Origin: Stegostoma tigrinum
Lineage: Eukaryota
Direction of reading: 5' to 3'
Assembly: GCF_030684315.1 (NCBI RefSeq)
Contig: NC_081359.1
Coordinates: 16,316,184-16,380,183 of the forward strand
DNA length: 64,000 bases
Made by a program: the position numbers and the translations under genes. Positions 6,065 to 63,207 of the stretch are shown here, in pieces. The notes beneath the pieces are model-generated. The model did not search any database and was not told the origin of the DNA. It saw only the letters and a list, made by a program, of their open reading frames with translations. Each line of letters begins with the position of its first letter. Positions within the stretch are counted from its first letter, which is position 1.

Positions 6065-6313
<249 letters not shown>

Positions 6314-12319: not shown

Positions 12320-13050
12320 TAAGACATCGGATCAAAAGAAGGCCATTTAGCCCTTCAAAACTGCTCCGCCGTTCAATGAGATCATGACTGACCTGATAAT
12401 CCTCAACGCTACATTTGTGTCGTTACCCCACATCCCTTGACTCCCTTGCTGATTTAAAAATTTCTCTGTCTCAGACTTATGTATTCTCATGGGCCCACCC
12501 TTGAGCCTTCTGCAGTCAAGAATTTCACAGATTTACTACCCACTGAGAGAAGGAATTGTTCTTCATCCCTCACCAATGGATGATCCTTTACTGTGAGATT
12601 ATGCCCTCTGGACATAGACACTCCCACAATCATAAACAGCTTCTCCATTTTCACCCTGTCAAGGTGCCTAAAAGTCATGTGTTTCCATAAGGCCTCTGCT
12701 CATTCTTCTAAACTTTAGTAAGTACAGGTCCAGCCTACTCAACCACTCCTCATAAAACCCATCCATACCCAGGTCCAAGATAATAAAATGTGAGGCTGGA
12801 TGAACACAGCAGGCCAAGCAGCATCCCTGAGATGCTGCTTGGCCTGCTGTGTTCATCCAGCCTCACATTTTATTATCTTGGAATCTCCAGCATCTGCAGT
12901 TCCCATTATCTCTCATACCCAGGTCCAACTTGGCGAACCTTCTCTGGACTGCGACCCGTGCCAGTGTATCTTTCTTTGCATAAGTGAACCAAAACTCTTC
13001 CTGGTATTTTAGGTGTGGTCTATCTAGTGCCTTGTATAATCTTAGGAAGA
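12320..13050 (-). mobile_element. CR1 LINE 3' fragment hosting a hairpin insertion
   Basis: ORF 12863..13093 LYKALDRPHLKY..VQRRFAKL. Confidence 0.85.
12779..12913. mobile_element. Penelope-derived hairpin element, family A (hammerhead region missing)
   Basis: Near-perfect inverted repeat flanked by the TSD catacccaggtccaa (12764-12778 and 12914-12928). Confidence 0.88.
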
Positions 13051-32092: not shown

Positions 32093-32494
32093 TGATTTCC
32101 AGAGAGAAATAGCTGATTCACTCTCTTGTCCAAAACTGTTAAATCACATGCCATTCTCTACTCCCTTATGCATTCCTGATAAACTTGAGCTGACTGTCTG
32201 CAGCTTGTCTGACGGAGTGTCAAAAACTGTCAGATTACTAGCCTGGATGTATTTTCTGATGAGAAATGCCAAGAGGTAATGAGCAGGCAAGAGACTGGAA
32301 CATATGTGGTCACTAGTTTGACTTGTTTCTTCCCAAGCAACATCAGTTACACAGCAGTTCCTAGGCACAAATGTACTTTACATTGAATCTGATTTCACAC
32401 AGAATGTACGGGTCATTTGGTCCAACTGATCTATGTGAGTGTCTATGTAAAGGAGGGTTTGGAGAGAAAGCAGGAACAAGGTATTGAGTTGCAT

Positions 32495-32686
32495 CAGAGA
32501 CAATGGGAACTGCAGATGCTGGAGAATCTGAGATAACAAAGTGTGGAGCTGGATAAACACAGCAGGCCAAGCAGCATCTCAGGAGCACAAAAGCTGACGT
32601 TTCGGCCTGACTGAAACGTCAGCTTTTGTGCTCCTAAGATGCTGTTTGGCCTGCTGTGTTCAGCCAGCTCCACACTTTGTTATCTC
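32495..32686. mobile_element. Penelope-derived hairpin element, family A
   Basis: Inverted repeat with TSD tattgagttgcat (32482-32494 and 32687-32699). Confidence 0.9.
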
Positions 32687-33890: not shown

Positions 33891-33907
33891 TCTCCTTGCT
33901 GTTTGTG

Positions 33908-34127
33908 ATCAGAGATAACGGGAACTGCAGATGCTGGAGAATCCAAGATAACAAGGTGTGGAGCTGGATGAACACAGCAGGCCAAGCAGCATCTCAGGAG
34001 CACGAAAGCTGATGTTTCGGGCCTAGACCCTTCATCAGAGAGCGGGTCTAGGCCCGAAACGTCAGCTTTTGTGCTCCTGAGATGCTGCATGGCCTGCTGT
34101 GTTCATCCAGCCTCACATTTTGTTATC
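33908..34127. mobile_element. Penelope-derived hairpin element, family A, with a hammerhead-like core on the - strand (34009-34041)
   Basis: TSD (tc)cttgctgtttgtg at 33893-33907 and 34126-34140; the - strand reads CTGATGA-A-GGGT-CTAG-GCCC-GAAA-CA-TC-AG. Confidence 0.9.
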
Positions 34128-34689: not shown

Positions 34690-34906
34690 AGAGAGATAAT
34701 GGGAACTGCAGATGCTGGAGATTCCAAGATAATAAAATATGAGGCTGGATGAACACAGCAGGCCAAGCAGCATCTCAGGAGCACAAAAGCTGACGTTTCG
34801 GGCCTAGATCCTTCATCAGAGAGGGTCTAGGCCCGAAACGTCAGCTTTTGTGCTCCTGAGATGCTGCTTGGCCTGCTGTGTTCATCCAGCCTCACATTTT
34901 ATTATC
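34690..34906. mobile_element. Penelope-derived hairpin element, family A
   Basis: TSD (atc)catcaggtaatgg at 34674-34689 and 34904-34919; the - strand reads CTGATGA-A-GGATCTAGGCCC-GAAA-CG-TC-AG. Confidence 0.9.
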
Positions 34907-35133: not shown

Positions 35134-35365
35134 GAACCAAAAGAACCGCGGATGCTGTAAATCAGGAGCAAAAACAAAGTTGCTGGAAAAGCTCAGCAGG
35201 TCTGGCAGCATCTGTGGAGGAGAAAACAGAGTTAACCTTTCGGGTCCGGTGACCCTTCCTCAGAACAGTTCTGAGGAAGGGTCAGCAGACAGAAGACATT
35301 AACTCTGTTTTCTCCTCCACAGATGCTGCCAGACCTGCTGAGCTTTTCCAGCAATTTTGTTTTTG
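35134..35365. mobile_element. Penelope-derived hairpin element, family B
   Basis: TSD aacagttaaaaa (35122-35133 and 35366-35377); the - strand at 35231-35266 reads GTT-CTGAGGA-A-GGGTC-ACCG-GACCC-GAAA-GG-TT-AAC. Confidence 0.88.
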
Positions 35366-36052
35366 AACAGTTAAAAAACTTCCCTATGATGACTGTGTGC
35401 AACATTTGGAATATCTGATTGTTGCTCATTCTATATTCTTAATAAGTGAGAGTTGCCTAATTTGCTAAGGATGGACTGCAGCTTGTTACTACCAGGCTTA
35501 TATAAAAGCAAGATCACAAACACTTTTTAAAAAAGTATGTATTTAGACCTTTTAATGAGATTTTTTATTATTCTGAATATGAGATGACATTGGCCATGTG
35601 TTCCTGCTTATTCTACTTGAATTGTGGTTTATTAATTGACCATGTGATACACTAATTCTTATAACGACATTCATTCGATTTTTAGAATAGAAACTAATAC
35701 AGAATAGAAGGAGACCGTTTGGTCCATTGTGCCTCTTCAAGCTTTTTGATCTCATCAATCCCTCTACCTAATCTCTTTTTCCCATGGCCCATATTATTAC
35801 AAAAGTGTGATATTTTCAGCCAGAATAACCACCACACAATCTATCTGAGTATAAATAATCCACCTTCACGTTGAGATGTGTTGCATAACACTACTACCAT
35901 GCTCAGTGGGATACACCTGGCAACTCAAGACTGGGCAACTGCGAGGAGCTGTGGACCATCAGCAACAACAAAACTGCACTCCCAACACAATCTGCAGTCT
36001 CATGACCCCAATATTCCCCCACTTTATCAATACCATCAAACTAGGGGATCTG

Positions 36053-36278
36053 AGATAACAAAGTGTGGAGCTGGATGAACACAGCAGGCCAAGCAGCAGC
36101 TCAGGAGCACAAAAGCTGATGTTTCGGGCCTGGATCCCTCATCAGAAGGTCTAGGGTCTAGGCCCGAAACGCCAGCTTTTGTGCTCCTGAGATGCTGCTT
36201 GGCCTGCTGTGTTCATCCAGCTCTACACTTTGTTATCTTGGATTCTCCAGCATCTGCAGTTCCCGTTATCTCTGATAA
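36053..36278. mobile_element. Penelope-derived hairpin element, family A
   Basis: TSD aaact(a/g)ggggatctg (36038-36052 and 36279-36293). Confidence 0.9.
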
Positions 36279-37586
36279 AAACTGGGGGATCTGCTCGGGT
36301 TCAATGGAGAATGCAGGCAGCCGTGCCAGGAACTCCAGTAGGCACACCTAACAACGAGGTGTCAAGCTAGTGAAACTACAAAAAGCTACTTGTCAAACAA
36401 TACACACAGCAATGATAGACAGAGCTAAGTGATTCCATGACCAACAGATCAGATCTAAGCTCTGCAGTCCTGTCACATTGCTGCCCTGGATGGCAGTGAA
36501 CAATTAAGCAATTCACTGGAGGATATAGCTGTACAAATAATCCCACCTTCAATAATAGGCGAGCCCATCACATTGTTGCACAAGATAAGGCTGAAGCATT
36601 TGCAACACTCTTCAGCCAGAGTGCTGAGTGGATGATCCGTCTCAGCCAACTTCAGAGATCCTCAGTGTCACAGGTGCCAATCTTCAGTGAATTCAGTTCA
36701 CTCCACGATATCAAGAAATGGATGGAGGCACCGGGCACTGTGATTCTGTGGGCCCTGTGAACAGTCTGGTAATAGTACTGAAGACTTGCAGCTGCCCCAG
36801 CCAAGCTGTTCCAGGCCACCTATAATACCTGCGTTTATCTGACTATATGGAAAATTGCCCAAGTTTATCCTGCTATATAAAACCCAGAACAAATGCAGTC
36901 CATTCAGTTACCACCCCATCAGTCTACTCTCAATTATCAGTAAAGTGATGGAAGGTTTCATCAACAGTACTATCAATGAATACCTGCTCAGCAATAACCT
37001 GCTTACTGATGCCCATTCTGAGTTTCACTAGGACCACTCGGTTCCTGACTCCACTACAGCCTTGATCTAAGCATGTTCAAAAGAGCTGAAATCCACAGGT
37101 GAGGTGAGAATTTGGCCTAAACATCAACATTGCATTTGACTGTGTGATCAAACAGCCGTAGCAAAAGTAATCAGCTGGAATCGGGAGGGAGGAAGGAAAT
37201 GTAAAAGGAGATGGTTGAGGTTGTTGAGCACTAATTTTCGCACCAGGGCTTCACTACAGGAGTCCCTCAGCTCAGTGATCTCTGATGAACTGTCCTCAGC
37301 TGTTTCAACAATGCCCATCCCTCCACTATGAAGCCAGAGGTGGAGATGTTCACCAATGACTGCAAAATATTCAGCATCATTTGCAGTTCCTCAGATACTA
37401 AAGTGGCCCACGTCCAAATTCGGCAAGTCCAAGGCAATGTCCAAGTTGGGCTGACAAGTGGCAAATGACATTCATGCCGCAGGAGGAGATTGACATTGGC
37501 CTTCATTGGCATTGCCGCTGTTGATTCTATACTATCCGTATCCTGAGAGTTTCCATTGGCCAGAAACTAAACATAGCTACATAAGT

Positions 37587-37806
37587 GATAGTAGGAACTG
37601 CAGATGCTGGAGAATCTGAGGTAACAAAGTGTAGAGCTGGACGAACACAGCAGGCCGAGTAGCATCAGAGGTGCAGGAAAGCTGACTTTTCGGGTCTAGA
37701 TCCTTCTTCAGAAATGCTGAAGAAGGATCTAGACCTGAAACGTCAGCCTTCTGCTTCTCTGATGCTGCTCGGCCTGCTGTGTTTGTCCAGACCTACACCT
37801 TGTTAT
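37587..37806. mobile_element. Penelope-derived hairpin element, family A, older subfamily (hammerhead-like core on both arms)
   Basis: TSD catagctac(a/g)taagt (37572-37586 and 37807-37821). Confidence 0.88.
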
Positions 37807-38466
37807 CATAGCTACGTAAGTACTGTCCCTACAAAAGCAGGACAGAGACTGGGAATCCCGCATCAACTAACGCACCTCCTGATTTCCCAAAACCTATTTG
37901 CCATCTCCATTACACAGAGCAGAAATTCACCAGGCTTTCTAATGGCTTTCTAATGGCATCTTCCAGACCGACAACTGCTACTGAGGTCAAGGGAACACCA
38001 CTACCTGCAAATTCTCCTCTAAAGCAGTTGCCACCCTGACTTTTAAATATGTCGTCAGTCTTTTAGTGGCACTGGGTCAGAATCCTGGAACTCCCTCCTT
38101 TACAGCATTGTGGGTCACCCTACACCAAATGAACTGCTGCAGTGAAAGGAAGGAGCTCACCTGCACATTCTGGAGGACAGCTGCGGTGGGTTCAATAAAT
38201 GCTGACCTAGCTAGCAACACTGACATTGTGTGAATCAATTTTACAAAAACATTACTATAGAAATGTGTATGGACTTTGAAGGTTGAATTAGATGCAATTG
38301 TTAATAATCAACAGCAGTAAACAGGTCATTGTTACAGAGTAATTATTAATTTATTCTTCTAAAGTTAACATTCAAACTTTGTCTGACATTTCTGAATCTG
38401 AATCTGTAGAAAATCTGTTCATTATGATTACTACTTAGAAGCACATTTTGATATTTATTTTTTTAA

Positions 38467-41081: not shown

Positions 41082-41548
<467 letters not shown>

Positions 41549-43254: not shown

Positions 43255-43478
43255 GAGATAGTAGGAACTGCCGATGCTGGAGTCTGAGACAACAAGGCAT
43301 AGAGCTGGATGAGTACAGCAAGCCAGACAGCATCAGAGGAGCGGGAAAGCTGACGTTCCAGGTCTGGGCCCTTAGTCAAGGAAAGAGTCCTGAGGAAGGG
43401 TCTAGACCTGAAATGTCAGCTTTCCTGCTCCTCTGATGCTGCCTACCCTGCTGTGTTCATCCAGCACTACACCTTATT
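43255..43478. mobile_element. Penelope-derived hairpin element, family A, older subfamily
   Basis: TSD atctctctgtcttt (43241-43254 and 43479-43492); the + strand at 43390 reads CTGAGGA-A-GGGT-CTAG-ACCT-GAAA-TG-TC-AG. Confidence 0.87.
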
Positions 43479-44029
43479 ATCTCTCTGTCTTTTACTGGTT
43501 TCTCCTCTCTGTGTAGAAGTTTCTTGTAATACCTGCATTAGTTTTATTAATGATTATCCTGTATTAATTGCCTTAGTTTTAGATTCTTTATTGAGTGGAA
43601 ACTTATTTTCCATGTCTTTTTTGAGGCAGGAAGCCCCAAATTGTTTAATTTTTCCAGTAAGTTTTAAGCTCTCAATCCTGCCATATCATTTCAATTTTTC
43701 TTTGCACCTTCTTGAATGTCTAAAACAGGGAGCAGAGCCGAGCGGAATTGTCTCCCTGCACAGATGGATTTAGTCACTTCCACTTCACTGAAACAGAAAC
43801 CTTTCAAATGCTGGCTAAGAATAAGTAACATTTTAAGAGCGATGAGAAGAAATTGCTGGACTTTGCCACAGCCTGCTTTGAGAGAATCCAGACTGCCCAA
43901 ACATGTCTTCGAGTTAAATCTGACAGAAGGTTCCCCAGTGTTCTTAATAATTACAGCAATTCTGCTCCATTCAGGACTATTTGAGAAAATTAGATAGACT
44001 GATAGATGATGCTTGAATAATGTTTATAA

Positions 44030-44224
<195 letters not shown>

Positions 44225-44557
44225 TAAAATTTGCCTTCATTTCCTCTTCAAAAAGAAATTGCACTTCTGCACTGTCTTTTGCAATCTCTGGTCATCCCAA
44301 ATTGCTTTCCATCTAAGGCTGGATACCTTGAAGTATGGTGACTTGCAATTTAGGAAAAGTGGTAGTCAATATGCACACAACAGACTGCTACAGATAGGTA
44401 AAGTGGTAATGACAAAGTAACCAATTTTTGATGCCGTTCCAGGGATTAGCCTTAGTTAAAAACGCTTGGATATGAGCCCTAATTCTTTAGATTGGAGCGG
44501 GTTAGATCTTTTACATCCATATGAGAGGGCCTTGGTTGAAGGATTCATCTTAAAGAT

Positions 44558-44653
44558 GAAACAAAAACAGAATTGCCAGAGAAGCTCAGCGGGTCTGGCA
44601 TCATCTGTGGAGAGAAAACAGAGTTTTGGGTCCGGTGACCCTTCTTCAGAACT
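44558..44653 (-). mobile_element. Single-arm family B fragment inserted in a decayed Deu-domain SINE (about 44330-44780, - strand)
   Basis: The - strand reads AGTT-CTGAAGA-A-GGGTC-ACCG-GACCC, then is degraded. Confidence 0.75.
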
Positions 44654-45799
44654 AAAAGGCACACTCTCTGACAGTGCGGCATTTTTCTGGAGGGGTGGTC
44701 TGGATCGCAGGCTCTGAAGTGGGACTTCAACACGCGCGTAACCGTTTCACACTGAGACGAAATGTTACCCCCGAGCCTCGGCTCACACTGCAGTTCATCA
44801 AAATTCTGCCCATTGACATGTTCTGCAAACTCATTCTGTAATTTCTGAGATACTCCTTCCCAATTCAAAAAGTCAGTTGCTGGGAAAACAGGATGCTGCA
44901 ATTACTATCATGTTTCAGGTTAAAAAAGACAAAGAAATGTAGAGAGTGTACTTCTTTAATTGTTCTTTGAAAATTCCCTTGGGAACTCATCTCATAAATT
45001 CCATAATTATTAAAAAGAGGAAAAAAAATCTTGCACCTTTTAAGCAATGTTGCTGACAAAGCCTTAAAAACAAAACAAGTTGTCAAGACTGGAAAATGCA
45101 AAGTTAAGAATTACTCATTCTTTTCCTGCCTCCTTCCCATGATAGTAATTTGCTTTCCAGAAATAATTTTCATAAGAACAACTCAGCATCTGTGGCCATA
45201 ATTAGAAGCCCCGTGTCAAGTATTTTGAGAGTGAAATCAAATTTCTAACTGGATATACTCCTCACGTAGAAAAGTAGCCATACTAATTCGAAACTGAAAC
45301 AAGGCTTCCAGGCAACCCACTTAATAACCTGCCTTAAATTAAAAACACAGAATATGCTGGAAATACTCAGCAGATCAGGCAACATTTGTGGACAGAGGAA
45401 AAATAAATTTGCCTTTCTAGAAACAGAAAGGGGAGAAAGAAACGAAAACAGATAATGTTTTCCATTTCTGTAACAACTTTTACAATCTCTACTCATCCAA
45501 AGATTTTTGCAAGTATCTTTTTTGTTGTTGCTGAATCAGCATTTATTGCAAATCCTTCGATATCCTTAAAAAGATGGCCATGAGCTGCCTTCAGGCGCTG
45601 CAGTCCATATGGTGGGACTTATCTATAATGGTTTGACGCAGTTGAGAAACTGGCTAGAACATTTCCAATGAGCACTTAAGATTTGGAATAATGTTTGGGC
45701 TGAGCTCAATAAGGGCCACAGATTTCCTATGTAATGGAAAGGAGCCAGATGGGATTTTACAACAAGCTGGTAGCTACACAATTTTAATCATTACTGAGA

Positions 45800-48640: not shown

Positions 48641-49097
48641 TAACATCATAGGAACAAGTCCCACATTCTCATCACTCACTGTGTAATGAGGTTTCTCTTA
48701 AAATTTACATTAAAATTATTCTTCAGTTAATGAATTGATAAAGTCCCCTTTTTGTTTGCATAATTTATGTATGAAACTATTTATTTTTTGCTGACTCTGC
48801 CTCAATGAAGAATCTAGGCTTAATTCTTGGCTTTAAAATTCCCAAAAATCTTGCTAACAGGAGTATGTTTCATAAGTTTTAGGATATATGCTTGGTGATT
48901 TCCTTCCTGAAAATCGTATGAAGACAACTGTCCTGATTGTGAAACTGCAATTTTGAACCGTATTTAATCTGTAAAACCTTTCTCATATCAGCATTAAATT
49001 TAAGAACAGCTTCCCCAATCAGTCTCTCCTGCCCAGAAACAACAAGAGTGAAGTTCATTTATATTTTAACATGGTAAAATAGCTAGAATAATTAGAT

Positions 49098-49184
49098 CAG
49101 AGAGAGCTTTCTGAAGAAGGGCCCAGATCCTCTGATGCTGCTTGGCCTGCTGTGTTCATCCAGTTCTACACCTTGTTATCTCTG
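49098..49184 (+). mobile_element. Deleted single-arm family A remnant
   Basis: ctgaagaagggcccagatcc joined to tctgatgctgcttggcctgctgtgttcatccag; flanking repeat ataattagat. Confidence 0.75.
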
Positions 49185-49881
49185 GGATAATTAGATGCCT
49201 GTTTTTGACTGGGGTAGGCTTGATGAGCCAAAGGGTCTTTTTCTGTGCAACAGAAGACTCAGTGTATGATTAAAACATTCCAAAGCTTCAACGAGATTTG
49301 GGAGGTGGGTGTTCCCAAAGATTACTTGAAACCTGTCACATCAGAAGATATTTGGGCAGGTGACCTGGATCTTGTTAAGAGACGTAGGACTTGAGTAATG
49401 GCACAAAAGTGATTGGGAGGTTTAGAGAGGGGGCTCAAATGTGTTGGTTCAGACAGCTGAAGGCAGGGTTGCTAATAGTGGAGCAGTGAAAAATGGAGAT
49501 ACTCTGAGAGTTGTCAGACCAGAGGTGGTCACGGAGATGGCGATAGGAAGACTCTGAAGGAATACATTACAAAGATAAACATTATAAAATTAAGACGTGG
49601 CTGGACCAGTTTCAGTGTAGCTCAGTGAGCATGGGTGATAGGTGAATGTGATATGTTGTGAATTGATGACCTTAGACTTAGTACCAGTGGAGGGATGGAC
49701 AAGTGAATATTGAAATGGTAGTGTTTAGAGGGAACAAAACTGTGAGTTGGGGGGCAGGGGGTCTCAACAGCAGATCAGTTGAAGCGAGCACTGATGGGGG
49801 GATGTTACACAAGTGCGAACAATGTTCATAGGGAGCACCACCCTGGCCCAGTATTTCTCAGGCGGTGCCCACTGGACCATG

Positions 49882-50225
49882 GATAACAAAGTGTGAAGCT
49901 GGATGAACACAGCAGGCCAAGCAGCATCTTAGGAGCACAAAAGCTGACGTTTTGAGCCTAGACCCTTCATCAGAAATGGGGGATGGGGAGAGGATTCTGA
50001 AATAAATAGGGAGAGAGGGGAAGGCAGACCGAAGATGGATAGAGGAGAAGATAGGTGGTTGCAGTCGGAGAGAGATCCCCTGAGGTTGGTCCGGAGGGAG
50101 CAGGATAACTTCTTCAGGTTAGGCATCCTGGAAGAGGCTTCGCAGTGAGGTTAAAATTGTGACCAAAGATAATGGGAACTGCAGATGCTGGAGAATCCAA
50201 GATAACAAAGTGTGGAGCTGGATGA
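49882..50225 (-). mobile_element. Non-autonomous family A Penelope derivative: a 319-nt unit plus 25-nt terminal direct repeat (retrozyme-like)
   Basis: Direct repeat gataacaaagtgtg(a/g)agctggatga at 49882-49906 and 50201-50225; TSD tgcccactgga(c/t)catg at 49866-49881 and 50226-50241. Confidence 0.85.
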
Positions 50226-53200
50226 TGCCCACTGGATCATGCCACCCATTCCAAACACATCTGGTTGCTGGGAAGTCAATCCATTCACTTTTTGTGGGTG
50301 GATTAAAACAATAGAGAGATTGAAGTAAAATCATTCAATTTCTCCATTTTTCTAATTGATTTCAAGCAATAGACATAATCTGTGCACTGGGTGGCGGGAC
50401 GGGCATTGTGGTAAAATCACTGGACTACTCCAGAGGCCAAGGTTAATTCTCTGAGAACTTGAGTTCAAATCTCACCATGGCAGCTGATGAAATTTCAATT
50501 CAGTTAATTAAATCTGGAGTTGAAATTAGTCTCAGTCATAATGACCATGAAATTATTATCAATTGGTTTCAAGAACCAATTGATCACTAATGCTCTTTAG
50601 GAAAGGAAATCTGCTGTCATTACCTAGTGTGATTCATGTGTAGCTTTAGATCCACAGCAGTGTGGTAGACTATTAACTATCCTCTGAAATAGCTGAGACT
50701 CAACCAACTATAATTATGTAAAAAATTTATATAATTTATAAAAATAATAATTCCTATAATTTATAAAAAGGATAACTAAAGACTATTTCTCTGAATGCAA
50801 ATAGCATTTGAAACAAGACAGACAAACTGAGAACACAAATAGAAATGAATAAGTACAAACTGATAGCCATTTCACAGCCTTGGCTGCAAGATGACATGGG
50901 TTGGGACCAAAATTTTTGAAGGGTGCAAGAATATTTAGGAATAGGAAAGCCAGGATAATATGGAGAGGTGCCTTTGTTAGATAATGATGATCGTAGCACA
51001 AAACGAGAGAAGAAACAAAGTCTGGAGAGCAAATTCTGGAAACCATTTGGGTAGAAGTAAGAATAATAAAGGCAAGTAGACATTGGAGTGGTGTCCAGGC
51101 CCTGAACAGTAAATACACAGTAGGCTGGAGCATAAAGAAATAAATCATGAGATTTTAACAGAAAAGTATAGCCATAATCGTGAGACATATATCTACATAG
51201 ACTAGAAATGCCAGATGGGTAAAGTTTGCCTAGATGTGTTCATAGAATGCTTTCAGAATTTAGAGCATGACTTGGAACTAGAGAATAGGCAGTACTAGGC
51301 CTGATATTGTGCAGTGAGATAAGGTTAATTAATGAGCTCATGGTGAAGGCATAATAAGATTGAATTATACTTTCAGTTTGAAGGAGAGAGGAATGGATCC
51401 AAGACAATTTTGTAAATTTTAAATAAGTGACATTTGTGCAAAAATATTTCACAGCAAATAATCGCCTGGAATCAGTTAAGTGCTACTTACCTATTTGACG
51501 TAAAGGGTACGTTCTCTGGATTTAAGTCTCTGTAATGGATAGTGTCGTGAAAACGGGATGTGATATTGTTTCGATGTCTGTTTTAAGATCTTTCAAACTC
51601 TGCTGTAAATTTAGATAGATTTGTTTGTTTTGTTTTTGTTCAAGAATAAAAGCCTGTTAAACAGTTTAGGTTTTGTGATTGTTTCAGTGAATAACCACCT
51701 CATTAACTAAAATAAAGAAGACGCAATCTATGAGGCCAGATTTCAGGGTCTGACTTATGTAATAGTACAATTAGTAGTGATGATAGTGAGTGCTGTTGCC
51801 AGGATTGAAATTCATTGAAAAAGTAATAGATGTGTAGAGGAGCTGAATGTGTTTTGTGAATCCTTTTGAACGTATTGGGTTTTCAAGGTGGCTTTGAATG
51901 TTGCTAAGCATTTTATAGGAGCAGAAGACGCACTATAAATCATTTGAAATTTTTGATTAAGGCTAACTTGAAAGTTGAATCTTGTAAAGAAGGGATGCTG
52001 AAAGTGATTATCCAAAATTTGGAGTTAGAAGTTAAACCTGAAAATAAGATGTCACAGCTAGATCTAGCTAAAACATAGTTAGTAATGAAAGGACTTGAGT
52101 TGGAGGAAAAAGTGAGAGAAGGAGAAATGAGGAAAAAAGAGTTTCGAAATAACAAAGCTTGAACAGGAGTGGAGGTGGAATTGAAGTTTTGAACTGAAGA
52201 GACAGGCAAAATAGGTAACAGGATTTTGCCAGAGAAAAGCGTAGGGAAGAAGGAAAGCCGCGGTAGTAGCTAAGAAGATGATTCTTATGCCAATGACATT
52301 TTGCTTTAACTTAAAAGCTACATCAAGAGCCTAAATATACTGAGAATACAGTCAAACAGTATTTTACCACACTTGGACAGGTAGCTGTGACGTGCTCTGA
52401 AAGCTTGTGATTTCACATAAGCTTGTTGGAATATAACCTGGTGTCATGTGACTTCTGGAAAGGCAACTGAGCAGATAACGAGGCCAAAAAATCTTTGAAT
52501 CCCAGCCTCAATGTTAAGTGTGTTTTGACCGGTATAGCTGGCCGTGTACACTACTTTGTTTGAAGAACAATCTGTAGATTATGAAACTGTTACAAAAGCA
52601 ATCCTCAATCCATATGAGCTCACACCTGAAGGTTATCAATTAATATTTAGAACTACAAAAAAGAAATCTGATCTGACCTTTGTCAAATTTGCAAGAGAGA
52701 AAAAAATGCTGCAGGATCGGTAGTCTTAATCACCTGAAATTAGAGATAAAATTGAGAATATAAAGGAAATTATGATTATGATAGAATTCAAAAATGGCAT
52801 TCCTGAAAATCTAAATATGTATTGAGAGGTGATTTAAGCATCAAAGATCAGAGAAGCAGCGTTTCAGGCAGATAACTATGATATCTCTCACAGACAGTTA
52901 CGAGTGGGGAGATGACCATTGGAGAATTCACCAGGAAAGTGGAGGAATAAAAAGTCTGCAGATGGAAGAAATACTAGTTTTAGGGAACAAACAGAATAAT
53001 ACCAAAGTAACAAAGTAGAAACCAAAAAGTAATACAAAGAAAATAACATACTTGCATGGACATGCCAAAGCTAGTTGCTGGATATTAGAGATTGCAGTGG
53101 TAGGGATGCATTAAGGAATGCACAGAAAAGAGGGCATGCAGAAAAGAAATAAGCATTAAAACAGTGTAGTGGTACAAACAGAATGTGAACATATTAAGAA

Positions 53201-55209: not shown

Positions 55210-58200
55210 TTCAGCGGGCATTGCTGGTTTAGCCGGCGTTTACTGCCTGTCCCTAGTTGCCCTTGAGAAGGTCTTCTATAGTCTACTACTGTCCATGTGC
55301 TGTTGGCAGACCCCTAATGTCCCGAGGGAAGGAATTCCCAGTGACAGTGAAGGAACAGTGATATATTTCCAAGCCAAGATGGTGAATGGGGAAATTACAG
55401 GTGGTGGTGTTTTCATGTATCTGCTGCCCTTGTCCTCCAAGGTGGCAACAGCCATGGGTTCAGAAGTTGCTGTATAAGGAGCTTTGGTGAATTTCTGCAG
55501 TGGATCTTGTAGATAGTGTGCACTGCTGATACTGAACATCAGTGGTAGAGGAGGTGAATGGTTGTGCTGTGATACCATCCAAGAAGGTGCTTTGTCCTGG
55601 ATAATGCCATGCTTTTTGAGTGTTGTTGGAGCTGCACCCAATCGGCCTATAATTTTCCATGTTTTGCCTTGATCCTTTCTTAAGCAAGGGAGTTACAACA
55701 GCGATTTTCCAATCATCTGGGACTTTCCCTGACTCCAGTGACTTTTGAAAGATCACAACCAAAGCCTCTGCTATTTCCTCAGCCACCTCTCTCAGAACTT
55801 GAGGATGTAGCCCATCGGGGCCAGGAGATTTATCAATTTTTAGACCTTTTAGCGTTTCTAGCACTCTCTCTTTTGTAATGCCTACCATACTCAACTCTGC
55901 CCCCTGACTCTCCTTAATTGTTGGGATACTACTCGTGTCTTCCGCTGTGAAGACTGATGCAAAGTACTTATTAAGTTCTTCAGCTATTTCCTTATCTCCC
56001 ATCACTAGCCTTCCAGCATCAATTTGGAGAGGCCCAATGTCTATTTTGCCTCTTGTTTGTTTCTTATGTATTGAAAGAAACTTTTACTATCATATCATTT
56101 TACTGTCATGTGATAACATACATAGGACATAGATTTAAGGTGATTACCAAAAATGCTTGAGAGATGAGGAGAAATTTACTTTGGCTGTTAGTTGTTATGA
56201 TCCAGAGTTCACTGCCGGATAAATCCACAGAAGTACATCCAAGGAACTTTCAAAAACAGATTAGAAGACAGAAAGAGCAGCAGCAGTGAGAATACCTGGT
56301 TATCATTTTCAAACAGGCAACAGAGGCATGACGGGCTGAAAGGCCTCCGATTGGATGGATGAGCAGAATAGCCCATTCAGCCCATCGCGCCTATTCCACC
56401 ATTCACTAAGATCATGTCTAATATGATAACCCTCTATTCCACTTTTCTGCCTCTTTCCCCATAACTCTTAATTCAAACTCTGTCTATGCCTGCCTTGAAT
56501 ATGAAGTTATGGAGACAATGCTTAATGACCCAACCTCTGAAGTCCTCCGCAGTAAAGCATTTTACAGATTCACCACCCTCTGAAAGAAGAAATACCTTCA
56601 TATCTCTGTCTTGAATGGGCTACGTCTCATTCTGAGATGATGCCCCCGGACCTAGACTCTCCCTGCTACCTCCCTGCACCTACCCTGTCAAGTCTCCTCA
56701 GAGTCTTGTATGTTCAGCCAGTCATTCCTCATTCTTCTGAACTCCAGTGAGCACAGGGTCAACCAAATCAACCTCTCCTTATAGGACAGCCCTTCCATAC
56801 CCAGGATCAATATGGTGCAGCCTTCTCTGGACTGCCTTCAATGCCAGAATATCATTCCTTCAATAATGGGACCAAACTTGTTCACAGTATACCAGCTGTG
56901 GTCGGACGAATGCCTCGTATACTTGTAGCAAGACCTTTATTTTTATGCTCAATTCCATTTGAAATAAAAGTTGACATTCTATTTGCCTTCCCTATTACTG
57001 CTGAACTTGGATACCAGCTTTTTGTGATTTATACACAGGACTCCCAAATTCCTCTGTGTTGTAGCCTTCTGCTGTCTTTGTGCGTTTAACATAACATTCA
57101 GCTAAACTTTTCTTCCAGCCGAAGTCCATGTCCTCACATTTTCCCACATTATATAGGATTTACCAAGTTTTTGTTCACTTGCTTAATCTGTCTATACCCC
57201 TCTGCAAACTCTTTATGCCATCCTCAGCACCTGGCTTCCCACTTAGTCTTGTTGCATATGGATATGGACTGCTTCTGTATCTGAGGAGTCACAAATAGTT
57301 CTGAGCATTGTGCAGTCATCATTGAATATCCTCACTTCTGAGCTAATGTTGGGGGGAGGGTCATCATTGATGATGGTTGGGTACAGGAGACAAACCTGAT
57401 AAATTCCTGCTGAAATGATTGACCTTCAACAACTATGACCACTTTCCTTTGTGCTAGTTATGACTCCAACCAGCATAAAGTTTTCCCTGAACTTCCATTA
57501 ACTTCAATTTTATTTGGGCTCCTTGGTGTCACACTTAGTCAAATGTAGCCTTGTTACCAAGTTCAGTCACTCTCATTTTACCTCTTGCATTCAACTCTTT
57601 TATCTAAGTGTAAGGCTGTAATGATGCCAAGAGCTAAGTGACTTTGTGAAACATATTGAGCAGTTATTGCTGAGGAGTAGCTGCTTGATAACACCGTTAG
57701 TAACAACAGACTGACAGCGCAGTCTTTGGCTGAGTTGGATTTGTCCTGTTTCTTACAGGTTGTACCTGGGCAGTTTTCCACATTGTCAGGAAGATGCCAG
57801 TTTGTAGCTGTATTGGAACAGCTTTGCTAGAAACGTGGCAAGGTGCGGAGAACAAGTCTCAGTACTACTGCCAGAATGTTGTCGGGGTCCAGAGCTTTTG
57901 CAATGTAAAGCCTACATCATTAAAAATCATGAAGATTATGTCATTTGATATCATGTGGAGTAAATTACATGGCTGAAAATTGTGATGCTGTGGCTTTCTG
58001 GAGAAGTCGGGATGGATCATTGATTCAGCATTTCTGGCTGAAGATTGTTGCAGACGCTTTAGCCTTATCTTTTGCACTGATGTGCTGGGGTCCCGCATTT
58101 TTGAAGATGGGGATTTTTATGTTGTGGAGCCTCCTATTTTCGAGAGTTCTTTAATTGTCCTTCAGCATTCACAACAAAGTGTGGTAAGACTGCAGAGCTC

Positions 58201-58330: not shown

Positions 58331-59335
58331 ACTTTCTTTGTTGCTGGAGTCAAGGTAATTGTATTCTTGCCAGTTTCTGGGGAACTATAAACAATAAGGT
58401 TTATTAGACCTGATTGAATTAAAAAAAAGAAACTCAATGATATAAATTATGTATTGAATACTTTTGACAGAAGTATGTCACATTAATATGTTAAAGAGAT
58501 ATTTTGACTTGCAGGATTGTGTATTTATGGCAGTGAAATTAAAATATCAGTCCAATTGGATAATGAATCAACAACTGAAAATTTAAAAGTTGATTTCCTA
58601 ATAATTTAGATTGATAATAATGAGGTACTTAAACAGTTAGATAATTTAATGGAAGATAAAGCATCTAAGTTACTTGTGGACGCTGTTACAGACTAATAAA
58701 TCAGTTTGTGTAAATAGGCCAGAAAAAGCATCTTTGGCTGATCATGATGTTAATGTGAAGGAAAGATTACTGGTAAATTAATATCCTTATAGACTAAGTT
58801 CTGCCAAATTAGCTGAAGTGACATTAGAGATTAATTTTATGATTGAATCTAATCCTAGTAGTAAGAGTTCGTCTATCACAGTTGACCTAAAATCAGATGA
58901 GTCACAAAGACTGCAAAGTTAACATTGTGGCCAGTCCCTATTCCAAGATTGGAAAGCTGTATTGAAAGAATTGGACACGCATGATTTGTCACCAATATCA
59001 GCCAACCAAAAGGCTAGTGGGAAGTCCTATTAAATGATGGAACCAGAGAAATATCAGCTTTAGTAATACCAGACAGACTTTATGAATACAAAGTCATACT
59101 TTTTGGCATGAAGAATGCACCAGCAATGTTCCAGTGATTAATCTATAAAGTTGTTTTAAAAGAAAGTAAAGGCATGACCTTAAGAATATTTAGAAATTGC
59201 AAAGGAGGCAACAGCCTTATATTAGCTCTGCATCAGTATAAAGCCTACACCATGAAAAATCATGGAGATTATGTCATTTGTACAGATCACAATCCTTTGA
59301 CTTTTTAAATAGAAAATTTGGGACAAGAAGTTAGA

Positions 59336-59364
59336 CCCTAACCCTAACCCTAACCCTAAACCTA
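59336..59364 (+). repeat. Short interstitial telomeric repeat (CCCTAA)4 plus a degenerate unit
   Basis: ccctaaccctaaccctaaccctaaaccta. Confidence 0.85.
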
Positions 59365-62386: not shown

Positions 62387-62572
<186 letters not shown>

Positions 62573-62589
62573 TAAGTATTTTGTTCATT

Positions 62590-63207
62590 TGTCTTTATTG
62601 GTCACTGAGTGCATTGAGTACAGGAGTTGGGATGTCATGTTGCGGTTGTACAGGGCATTGATTAGGCCACTTTTGGAATGCTGCATTCAGTTCTGGTCCC
62701 ACCATTATAGGAAAGATGTTGTTAAACGTGAAAGGGTTCAGAAAGGATTTACAAGGATTGTGCCAGGGTTGGAAGTTTTGACCTACAGGAAGAGGCTGAA
62801 TAGGCTGGTGGCATTTTCGCTGGCATGTCACAGACTGAGGGGTGACCTTGTAGAGGTTTATAAAATCATGAGGGGCATTGGTAGGGCAAATAGCCAACAT
62901 TTTTCTTCCAGGGTAGAGGAGACCAAAACTAGAGGACATAGGTTGAAGGTGAGAGGGGAAAGATTTGAAAGGGAGCTCAGGAGCAAGTTTCTCTCGCAGG
63001 CGGTGTTGCATTTTTGGAATGAGTTACCTGAGGAAGTGGTGGAGGCTGGTACAATTATAACAGTTAAAAGGCATCTGGATGGGTACATGAATAGGAAGAG
63101 TTTAGAGGAATATGGGCCAAATAGGACTAAATTAATTAAGATATCTGTTCAGCATGGATGAGTTGGAGCAAAGGATCTATTTCTGTACTGTAAGATTCAA
63201 TGACTCT
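62590..63207 (+). mobile_element. CR1/HER1 LINE 3' fragment with an open 190-aa ORF2 C-terminus
   Basis: ORF 62589..63161 IEYRSWDVMLRLYRALIRPLLECCIQFWS..RLRGDLVEVYKIMRG..TRGHRLKVRGERF. Confidence 0.92.

Follow-up and report, generated by a model that had tools for sequence, protein, structure and literature searches.

For PLEs, partial tandem insertions, tails, TSDs and an internally deleted copy in Adineta vaga have been described (PMC3846280, PMC8557442, PMC11167929), the tail being the segment bounded by two internal RT start sites (PMC11167929). A minimal hammerhead descriptor for metazoan PLEs is given in PMC4209133, in which ribozymes of this minimal type I are reported to be weak, with cleavage confined to dimers or to constructs given an extra helix III. 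According to PMC11167929, the uncut RNA is the main substrate of the Anolis element in vitro. The derivation of animal retrozymes from PLE ends is already in print (bioRxiv 10.64898/2026.07.22.740005, with one chondrichthyan sampled); the same account accepts minimal hammerhead motifs as well, and retrozyme monomers are regarded as inactive offspring (PMC7229834; bioRxiv 10.64898/2026.07.22.740005).

The locus analysed here is probably a low-copy, short, non-autonomous and internally deleted PLE derivative that was mobilised in trans. It lies in a window of 64 kb, by which the whole stretch of analysed DNA is meant, and the genome-wide evidence comes from four of 23 listed sequencing runs, aligned to the locus: X1 and X14 are contigs of organism A (this species), X12 contigs of organism B (a related species), and X21 raw bisulfite reads of organism A, about 1% of which were used. 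The host is a vertebrate, probably a shark, and the window carries NALCN (sodium leak channel) on the + strand. The insertion is intronic, bracketed by the exons at ~44.1 and ~62.4 kb, and antisense to NALCN; as the ribozyme strand is the antisense one, host transcription of NALCN would not yield it. A telomere-type hexamer repeated five times was also observed in this intron, at 59335-59364.

The insertion spans 344 nt at 49882..50225 on the minus strand and, exactly as the initial annotation had described, comprises one 319-nt unit plus a 25-nt repeat of its own start between 16-bp TSDs. The two TSD copies differ at one position, whereas the first and last 25 nt of the insertion form a direct repeat with 24/25 identical letters at a spacing of 319 nt. 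Along the minus strand, the remnant of 25 nt is followed by the 34-nt tail, a 40-nt leader, an ATG at 50126, the junction, the pyrimidine tract, the hammerhead and the 3′ end at 49882 (Table 1); the short ORF, the pyrimidine-rich tract, the hammerhead letters and the G12 mutation reported from the first reading are all as written. In control draws from the window, among which the focal locus itself was left, a 16-mer with at most one mismatch occurred at the TSD spacing in 6 of 200,000 fixed-position draws, and a 16-mer pair of the same stringency in 1 of 3,000 draws when slack was allowed. A chance origin of the TSD pair is excluded. With a unit length of 319 nt, a GC content of 0.49 and a TSD of 16 bp, the insertion falls inside the retrozyme range (170-400 nt, GC <50%, TSD >4 bp).

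Table 1. Coordinates, in the window, of the features of the insertion, of the neighbouring insertions of its tail family and of the NALCN exons.
Feature	Position	Strand	Remarks
Left TSD	49866..49881		16 bp; holds the lone mismatch between the TSD copies
Right TSD	50226..50241		16 bp
25-nt terminal redundancy	50201..50225	-	remnant of the upstream pseudo-LTR; 5′-truncated 39 nt downstream of the upstream unit's predicted cut site
34-nt tail	50167..50200	-	separates the short from the long 3′ end of the family, the two presumed RT start sites
40-nt leader	50127..50166	-	from tail to ATG; genome-repeated (read depth), single in the window
Putative PLE ORF start	50059..50126	-	68 nt, ~22 codons; assigned by position
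Internal deletion junction	50058..50059	-	ORF start fused to 3′ UTR; ~1 nt common to both sides; single in the window
Pyrimidine-rich terminal part of the putative 3′ UTR of the family	49975..50058	-	84 nt, 82% C+T
Minimal type-I hammerhead motif	49944..49975	-	core 49973-49946; cleavage predicted at 49946/49945
Segment from the predicted cut to the short 3′ end of the family	49882..49945	-	64 nt; most hairpin arms of the window end alike
Chimeric reading frame	49929..50126	-	65 codons, formed by the junction; only ~22 codons before it
Tail-family insertions	12779-12914, 32493-32686, 33903-34127, 34690-34906, 36050-36277		10-16 bp TSD each
Tail-family insertions, continued	37585-37807, 41346-41548, 43255-43481, 49096-49185		10-16 bp TSD each
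NALCN exons	~6090-6240, ~41090-41290, ~44050-44190, ~62410-62480	+	window coordinates

Organism B appears to have an empty site with a single copy of the 16-mer, as indicated by the lengths and depths of its contigs. A 361-nt X12 contig of depth 14.9 is aligned at 49700-49865 (record 118-281, differing in 9 letters and with 2 gap letters), and its leftover 80 nt fit a piece of equal depth at 50226-50305. This is consistent with the depths of the X12 bins, namely 14.9 over 50228-50275 and 8.71 over 50300-50323 (= 4.98 + 14.9 x 6/24), and with a variant at 50265 that sits 40 from the end of its piece; the empty-site joint is absent among the 15 X12 matches listed (815 further). The alignment of the contig to 49865 and its resumption at 50226 suggest that the right TSD copy is the ancestral version. 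The apparent empty site in organism B supports the insertion as a real, lineage-specific event.

The hammerhead belongs to the minimal type-I class, its stem I having only 2 bp, and its core letters match the minimal descriptor, including the extra base after A9, the G10.1-C11.1 pair and the palindromic 15.2-16.2. The canonical helix I of the PMC7229834 definition, of ~6 bp with a loop-loop contact, differs from the 2-bp stem found here. Rfam gave no match at gathering in the window, to hammerheads or to any other family, and no hammerhead among 48 weak matches in 32-51 kb, which are mostly microRNA hairpin models placed on palindromes. Furthermore, no compensatory change was observed in 7 pairs across 10 aligned arms. 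Consequently, the hammerhead assignment rests on the core letters. In the focal copy, G12 has been lost at 49953 through a CpG transition, and a stem II G-C pair has become G-U at 49955. G12 is intact in 14/14 neighbouring arms and in 75%, 73% and 97% of the depth in X1, X12 and X14, respectively. At 49953, the family's cytosine in the G12 CpG remains unconverted in 888/1,233 X21 reads while non-CpG Cs convert (57/57 at 50127; 306/314 at 50138), which places G12 in a methylated CpG, a mutation hotspot. The simple reading is that G12 was lost by CpG decay after insertion, and the mutation would therefore be no argument against an intact template.

The boundaries of the family are evident from the loose ends in the aligned runs. 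The one before 49882 is the commonest listed (3,971 contigs in X1 and 782 in X12), and a second, before 50167, lies 34 nt further along the unit (1,215 contigs in X1); both ends are also present in X14, and joints of 49882 and 50167 on opposite strands are seen in the aligned runs. Two 3′ ends 34 nt apart agree with the 30-40 nt tail expected of a PLE, as do the partial tandem and inverted structures with TSDs that are present in the family. Neighbouring family insertions carry TSDs of 10-16 bp in 10/10 surveyed, sharing both the 3′ end and the TSD class of the focal copy. Since this 3′ end is the family's usual copying start, random permutation of the unit does not apply, and variation is confined to its 5′ end; with the 3′ ends fixed at two sites, a search for "different permutation points" constitutes a weak test. 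Of 17 family arms in the window, 14 likewise continue past the predicted cut site, which agrees with uncut RNA as the main in vitro substrate.

The nine tail-family insertions in the window include eight clear hairpins; as a rule, the two arms differ in their 3′ end, one having the short and the other the long form. The hairpin insertion at 41346-41548 starts ~55 nt downstream of the 5′ splice site of a NALCN exon. A second, related hammerhead family is found at 35135-35365, 44551-44660 and 45332-45393, its first copy being a hairpin with a 12-bp TSD.

An RT or GIY-YIG frame, as expected of the autonomous partner, was absent among 160 frames of at least 72 aa in the window, and the family motifs had 0 matches in metagenome, viral and prokaryote contigs. 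The 65-codon chimeric frame is probably not a gene: the protein comparisons yielded no relative among 22 and among 529 candidates, the frame had no Atlas match, and its sole match in a library of 1.84 billion, a HAMP-repeat chemoreceptor, was judged to be due to chance. Two other frames of the window, 55463-56083 (-) and 62565-63158 (+), gave no Pfam match at E 0.001; they resemble decayed CR1-type LINE reverse-transcriptase pieces.

The junction at 50058/50059 is where the unit departs from the rest of its family. The X21 depth is ~23,300 over 49988-50035, 16,334 over 50036-50059 and 16.9 over 50060-50083, with flanks at 1 or less. Behind 50058, 12,078 X21 reads depart from the reference and at most 12 cover 50066, 8 nt beyond; the latter figure may be low because bisulfite conversion penalises the C-richer side, the count of loose ends being direct. 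Approached from the opposite side, 4/4 X14 contigs covering 50066 leave the unit at 50058 for other sequence, and 0/4 cross the junction. Both halves normally continue elsewhere, which identifies 50058/50059 as a deletion joint. The two X21 counts also run against the initial annotation where it had proposed the unit as a possible template of the hairpins, and they rule the unit out as the main template of these thousands of copies. Judging from position, by analogy with the Adineta and Anolis elements, the two sides of the junction would correspond to two parts of a single autonomous PLE, namely its ORF start and its 3′ UTR. Splicing was ruled out as the origin of the junction, as the loose ends, inspected by eye, show no GT-AG ends on either strand.

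The junction is encountered beyond the focal copy. In organism B, X12 record 15 (124 nt, depth 128.8, aligned at 49997-50118, where 17 letters differ and 1 gap letter occurs) spans it, reaching 62 nt to one side and 60 nt to the other. Its depth is ~9 times that of the single-copy flank contig (128.8 vs 14.9; a rough figure), which points to several near-identical copies and suggests amplification. The usual continuations beyond the junction are unlike the unit (6/30 and 2/13 letters agree, by eye), and the 17 differences in 122 nt therefore cannot stem from forced alignment. For organism A, the evidence comes from the "from_end" column. A calibration with five variants in the flank contig of X12 indicates that this column states how far a variant lies from whichever end of the aligned piece is closer. 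On this reading, the X1 pieces with non-focal letters at 50066, 50088 and 50101 extend 46, 57 and 59 nt both ways; they would cover at least 50021-50111, 50032-50144 and 50043-50159, and hence the junction, although one junction-crossing piece could be a second allele, as X1 appears to be heterozygous at 49785. Uniqueness of the junction to this locus had been named beforehand as the observation that would count against the initial annotation; the one listed organism B contig, and probably the organism A pieces, point instead to a multi-copy junction, although no further copy of it appears together with its own flanks in the aligned runs.

These data bear directly on the view that a longer partial-tandem PLE was inserted at this locus and its middle was then deleted here, with the signals from elsewhere being misread. 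The middle part of the unit has no second copy in the 64-kb window, and no record spanning the junction is found among the 8 X1 records listed of 162,973 aligned; internally deleted single PLE copies are, moreover, described in the literature. However, organism B seems to be without the insertion here and yet has a junction-spanning contig for which forced alignment offers no explanation. Such a one-off loss is thus very improbable.

A different question is whether all junction copies descend from one event. At 50088, the focal copy carries the majority letter of organism A (91% of the X1 depth), whereas the other letter, which makes up 9% of the X1 depth and 98% of the X12 depth, is carried by the junction-crossing pieces in organism B and by at least one in organism A. 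Separate origins or mosaicism would account for this pattern more readily than simple descent. The junction is also rare in the genome, its copies amounting to ~0.1% or less of the 3′ UTR copies. Both observations suit a recurrent template jump, in which the enzyme on a full-length PLE RNA leaves the 3′ UTR and resumes in the ORF start, always at one base, and each insertion is new: the focal letter would be that of the majority ORF-start type of organism A, unlike the junction-crossing pieces, and the frequency is of the order of a rare error. On the other hand, the organism B contig has the junction within 1 nt, despite the sharing of ~1 nt and the lack of splice ends, and its depth suggests amplified, near-identical copies. 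Repeated jumping to the same position is consequently considered quite unlikely.

The length of the insertion constrains the form of the template. A linear partial-tandem RNA could yield at most 383 nt if it was not cleaved or was cleaved at the upstream site alone, and 344 nt are observed. Since no more than 64 nt could come from a doubly cut linear monomer, this hammerhead in the template had either stayed uncut or been religated. The latter possibility corresponds to a retrozyme-like circle, in which a source cut at two hammerheads 319 nt apart would provide a monomer that is ligated and then copied by the PLE reverse transcriptase for 1.08 turns from a fixed start. This accounts for the 344 nt equally well and draws on further observations: the unit is within the size range of animal retrozymes (~300 nt, PMC7229834; mean 363 bp in one chondrichthyan, bioRxiv 10.64898/2026.07.22.740005), the junction recurs at other loci, the hammerhead core of the family is mostly intact, and more-than-unit copying of a circle has already been proposed for PLEs (PMC4209133). 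Set against this, the 25-nt redundancy is within the 64 nt that a linear, once-cut RNA allows, only a single hammerhead is present, and it is of the minimal type with weak cleavage, and no tandem array of the unit is found in the window. The unit also folds no better than its shuffles (linear z -0.19; circular z -0.25, with 40/100 shuffles as good), and for the Anolis element PMC11167929 reports insertion in vitro independent of cleavage and no reads ending at the cut site. Joints that "go back 317/320", tried as a sign of circles or tandems, were dropped, since ordinary pseudo-LTR sequence gives an identical joint on this reference. Collectively, a circular template is regarded as unlikely. 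The same low confidence applies to the broader proposal of a nascent retrozyme family that originated in one PLE internal deletion older than the split of the two fish species and spreads via a 319-nt circular RNA, a scenario to be viewed with considerable doubt. With the usual 3′ end, and a 5′ end 39 nt short of the upstream cut site, a linear partial-tandem RNA suffices and the circle is not needed. The other option of the initial annotation, an internally deleted PLE with partial tandem pLTRs, fits these ends, as the 3′ end is the family's usual one and the 5′ end is within the linear-RNA limit.

The best explanation of the focal locus is that it is a dead, 5′-truncated daughter copy of a 319-nt mini-PLE. 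In the sequence of events proposed for this mini-PLE, a deletion would have joined approximately codon 22 of the ORF to the last 84 nt of the 3′ UTR, the assignment of both parts to one PLE being presumptive, and would have left a 319-nt unit that keeps the pseudo-LTR, the hammerhead and the tail. The junction would predate the divergence of organisms A and B, or would have arisen alike in both, and would have spread to a few loci, as shown by one contig in organism B and suggested by the from_end pieces in organism A. A source locus with an upstream pseudo-LTR may then have been transcribed, and a PLE protein acting in trans would have nicked the target with a 16-nt stagger; reverse transcription would have begun at the family's short start site, in agreement with the observed ends and TSD and with the enzymology of other PLEs. 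Copying would have passed the uncut hammerhead and the whole unit and halted 25 nt into the upstream pseudo-LTR, which would generate the terminal redundancy from a linear RNA. After entry into the NALCN intron, CpG decay would have removed G12.

Taken alone, the locus is a dead intronic insertion, and its value lies in marking a low-copy mini-PLE whose deletion junction can be traced. It illustrates a specific way in which an autonomous PLE can give rise to a unit of retrozyme size, a link otherwise argued mainly from the similarity of pseudo-LTR sequences. Because the 3′ ends are fixed, a circular and a linear template would be told apart by how 5′ ends scatter about 383 nt, the position of the upstream cut site, and by the presence of exact multimers. 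If the circle were true, the small unit would allow the turns of the PLE enzyme to be counted, a direct test of how tandem ends are rebuilt.

In the literature, the supplementary lists of retrozymes apart, no description of this unit or of an ORF-start-to-3′-UTR junction in two species was found; an equal chondrichthyan family may be among those listed. Compared with the partial-tandem insertions of EN+ PLEs (PMC3846280, PMC8557442, PMC11167929), the locus has, as in those accounts, a terminal repeat that derives from a 5′-truncated upstream unit, two 3′ ends 34 nt apart, a minimal hammerhead in the pseudo-LTR, a TSD and inverted copies nearby. In contrast to them, the 319-nt unit is devoid of almost the entire ORF, and its junction is common to two species. 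Short, internally deleted elements with preserved ends that form pseudo-LTRs or keep the ribozyme, and that depend on protein in trans, are exemplified by the R2 SIDEs (PMC6765202), and short non-autonomous Chlamys PLEs such as MRC1 (PMC8557442) share the preserved ends, the pseudo-LTRs or ribozyme and the supply of protein in trans. Both belong to other hosts and other element clades; Chlamys elements are described as lacking canonical hammerheads (PMC8557442), and R2 has an HDV-like ribozyme and a fixed rDNA target (PMC6765202). With the animal non-LTR retrozymes (PMC7229834; bioRxiv 10.64898/2026.07.22.740005), the unit has in common a length of ~300 nt, a type-I hammerhead, GC <50% and a TSD >4 bp, together with a PLE-derived, non-autonomous character. 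It departs from their form of at least two consecutive units, each with a complete hammerhead, in having 1.08 units and one mutated minimal hammerhead, and from their described origin in that a putative ORF start and 3′ UTR are joined by deletion, a route absent from the main text of bioRxiv 10.64898/2026.07.22.740005. The unit would act like a non-autonomous PLE derivative, and it resembles a retrozyme monomer in size, GC content and TSD.
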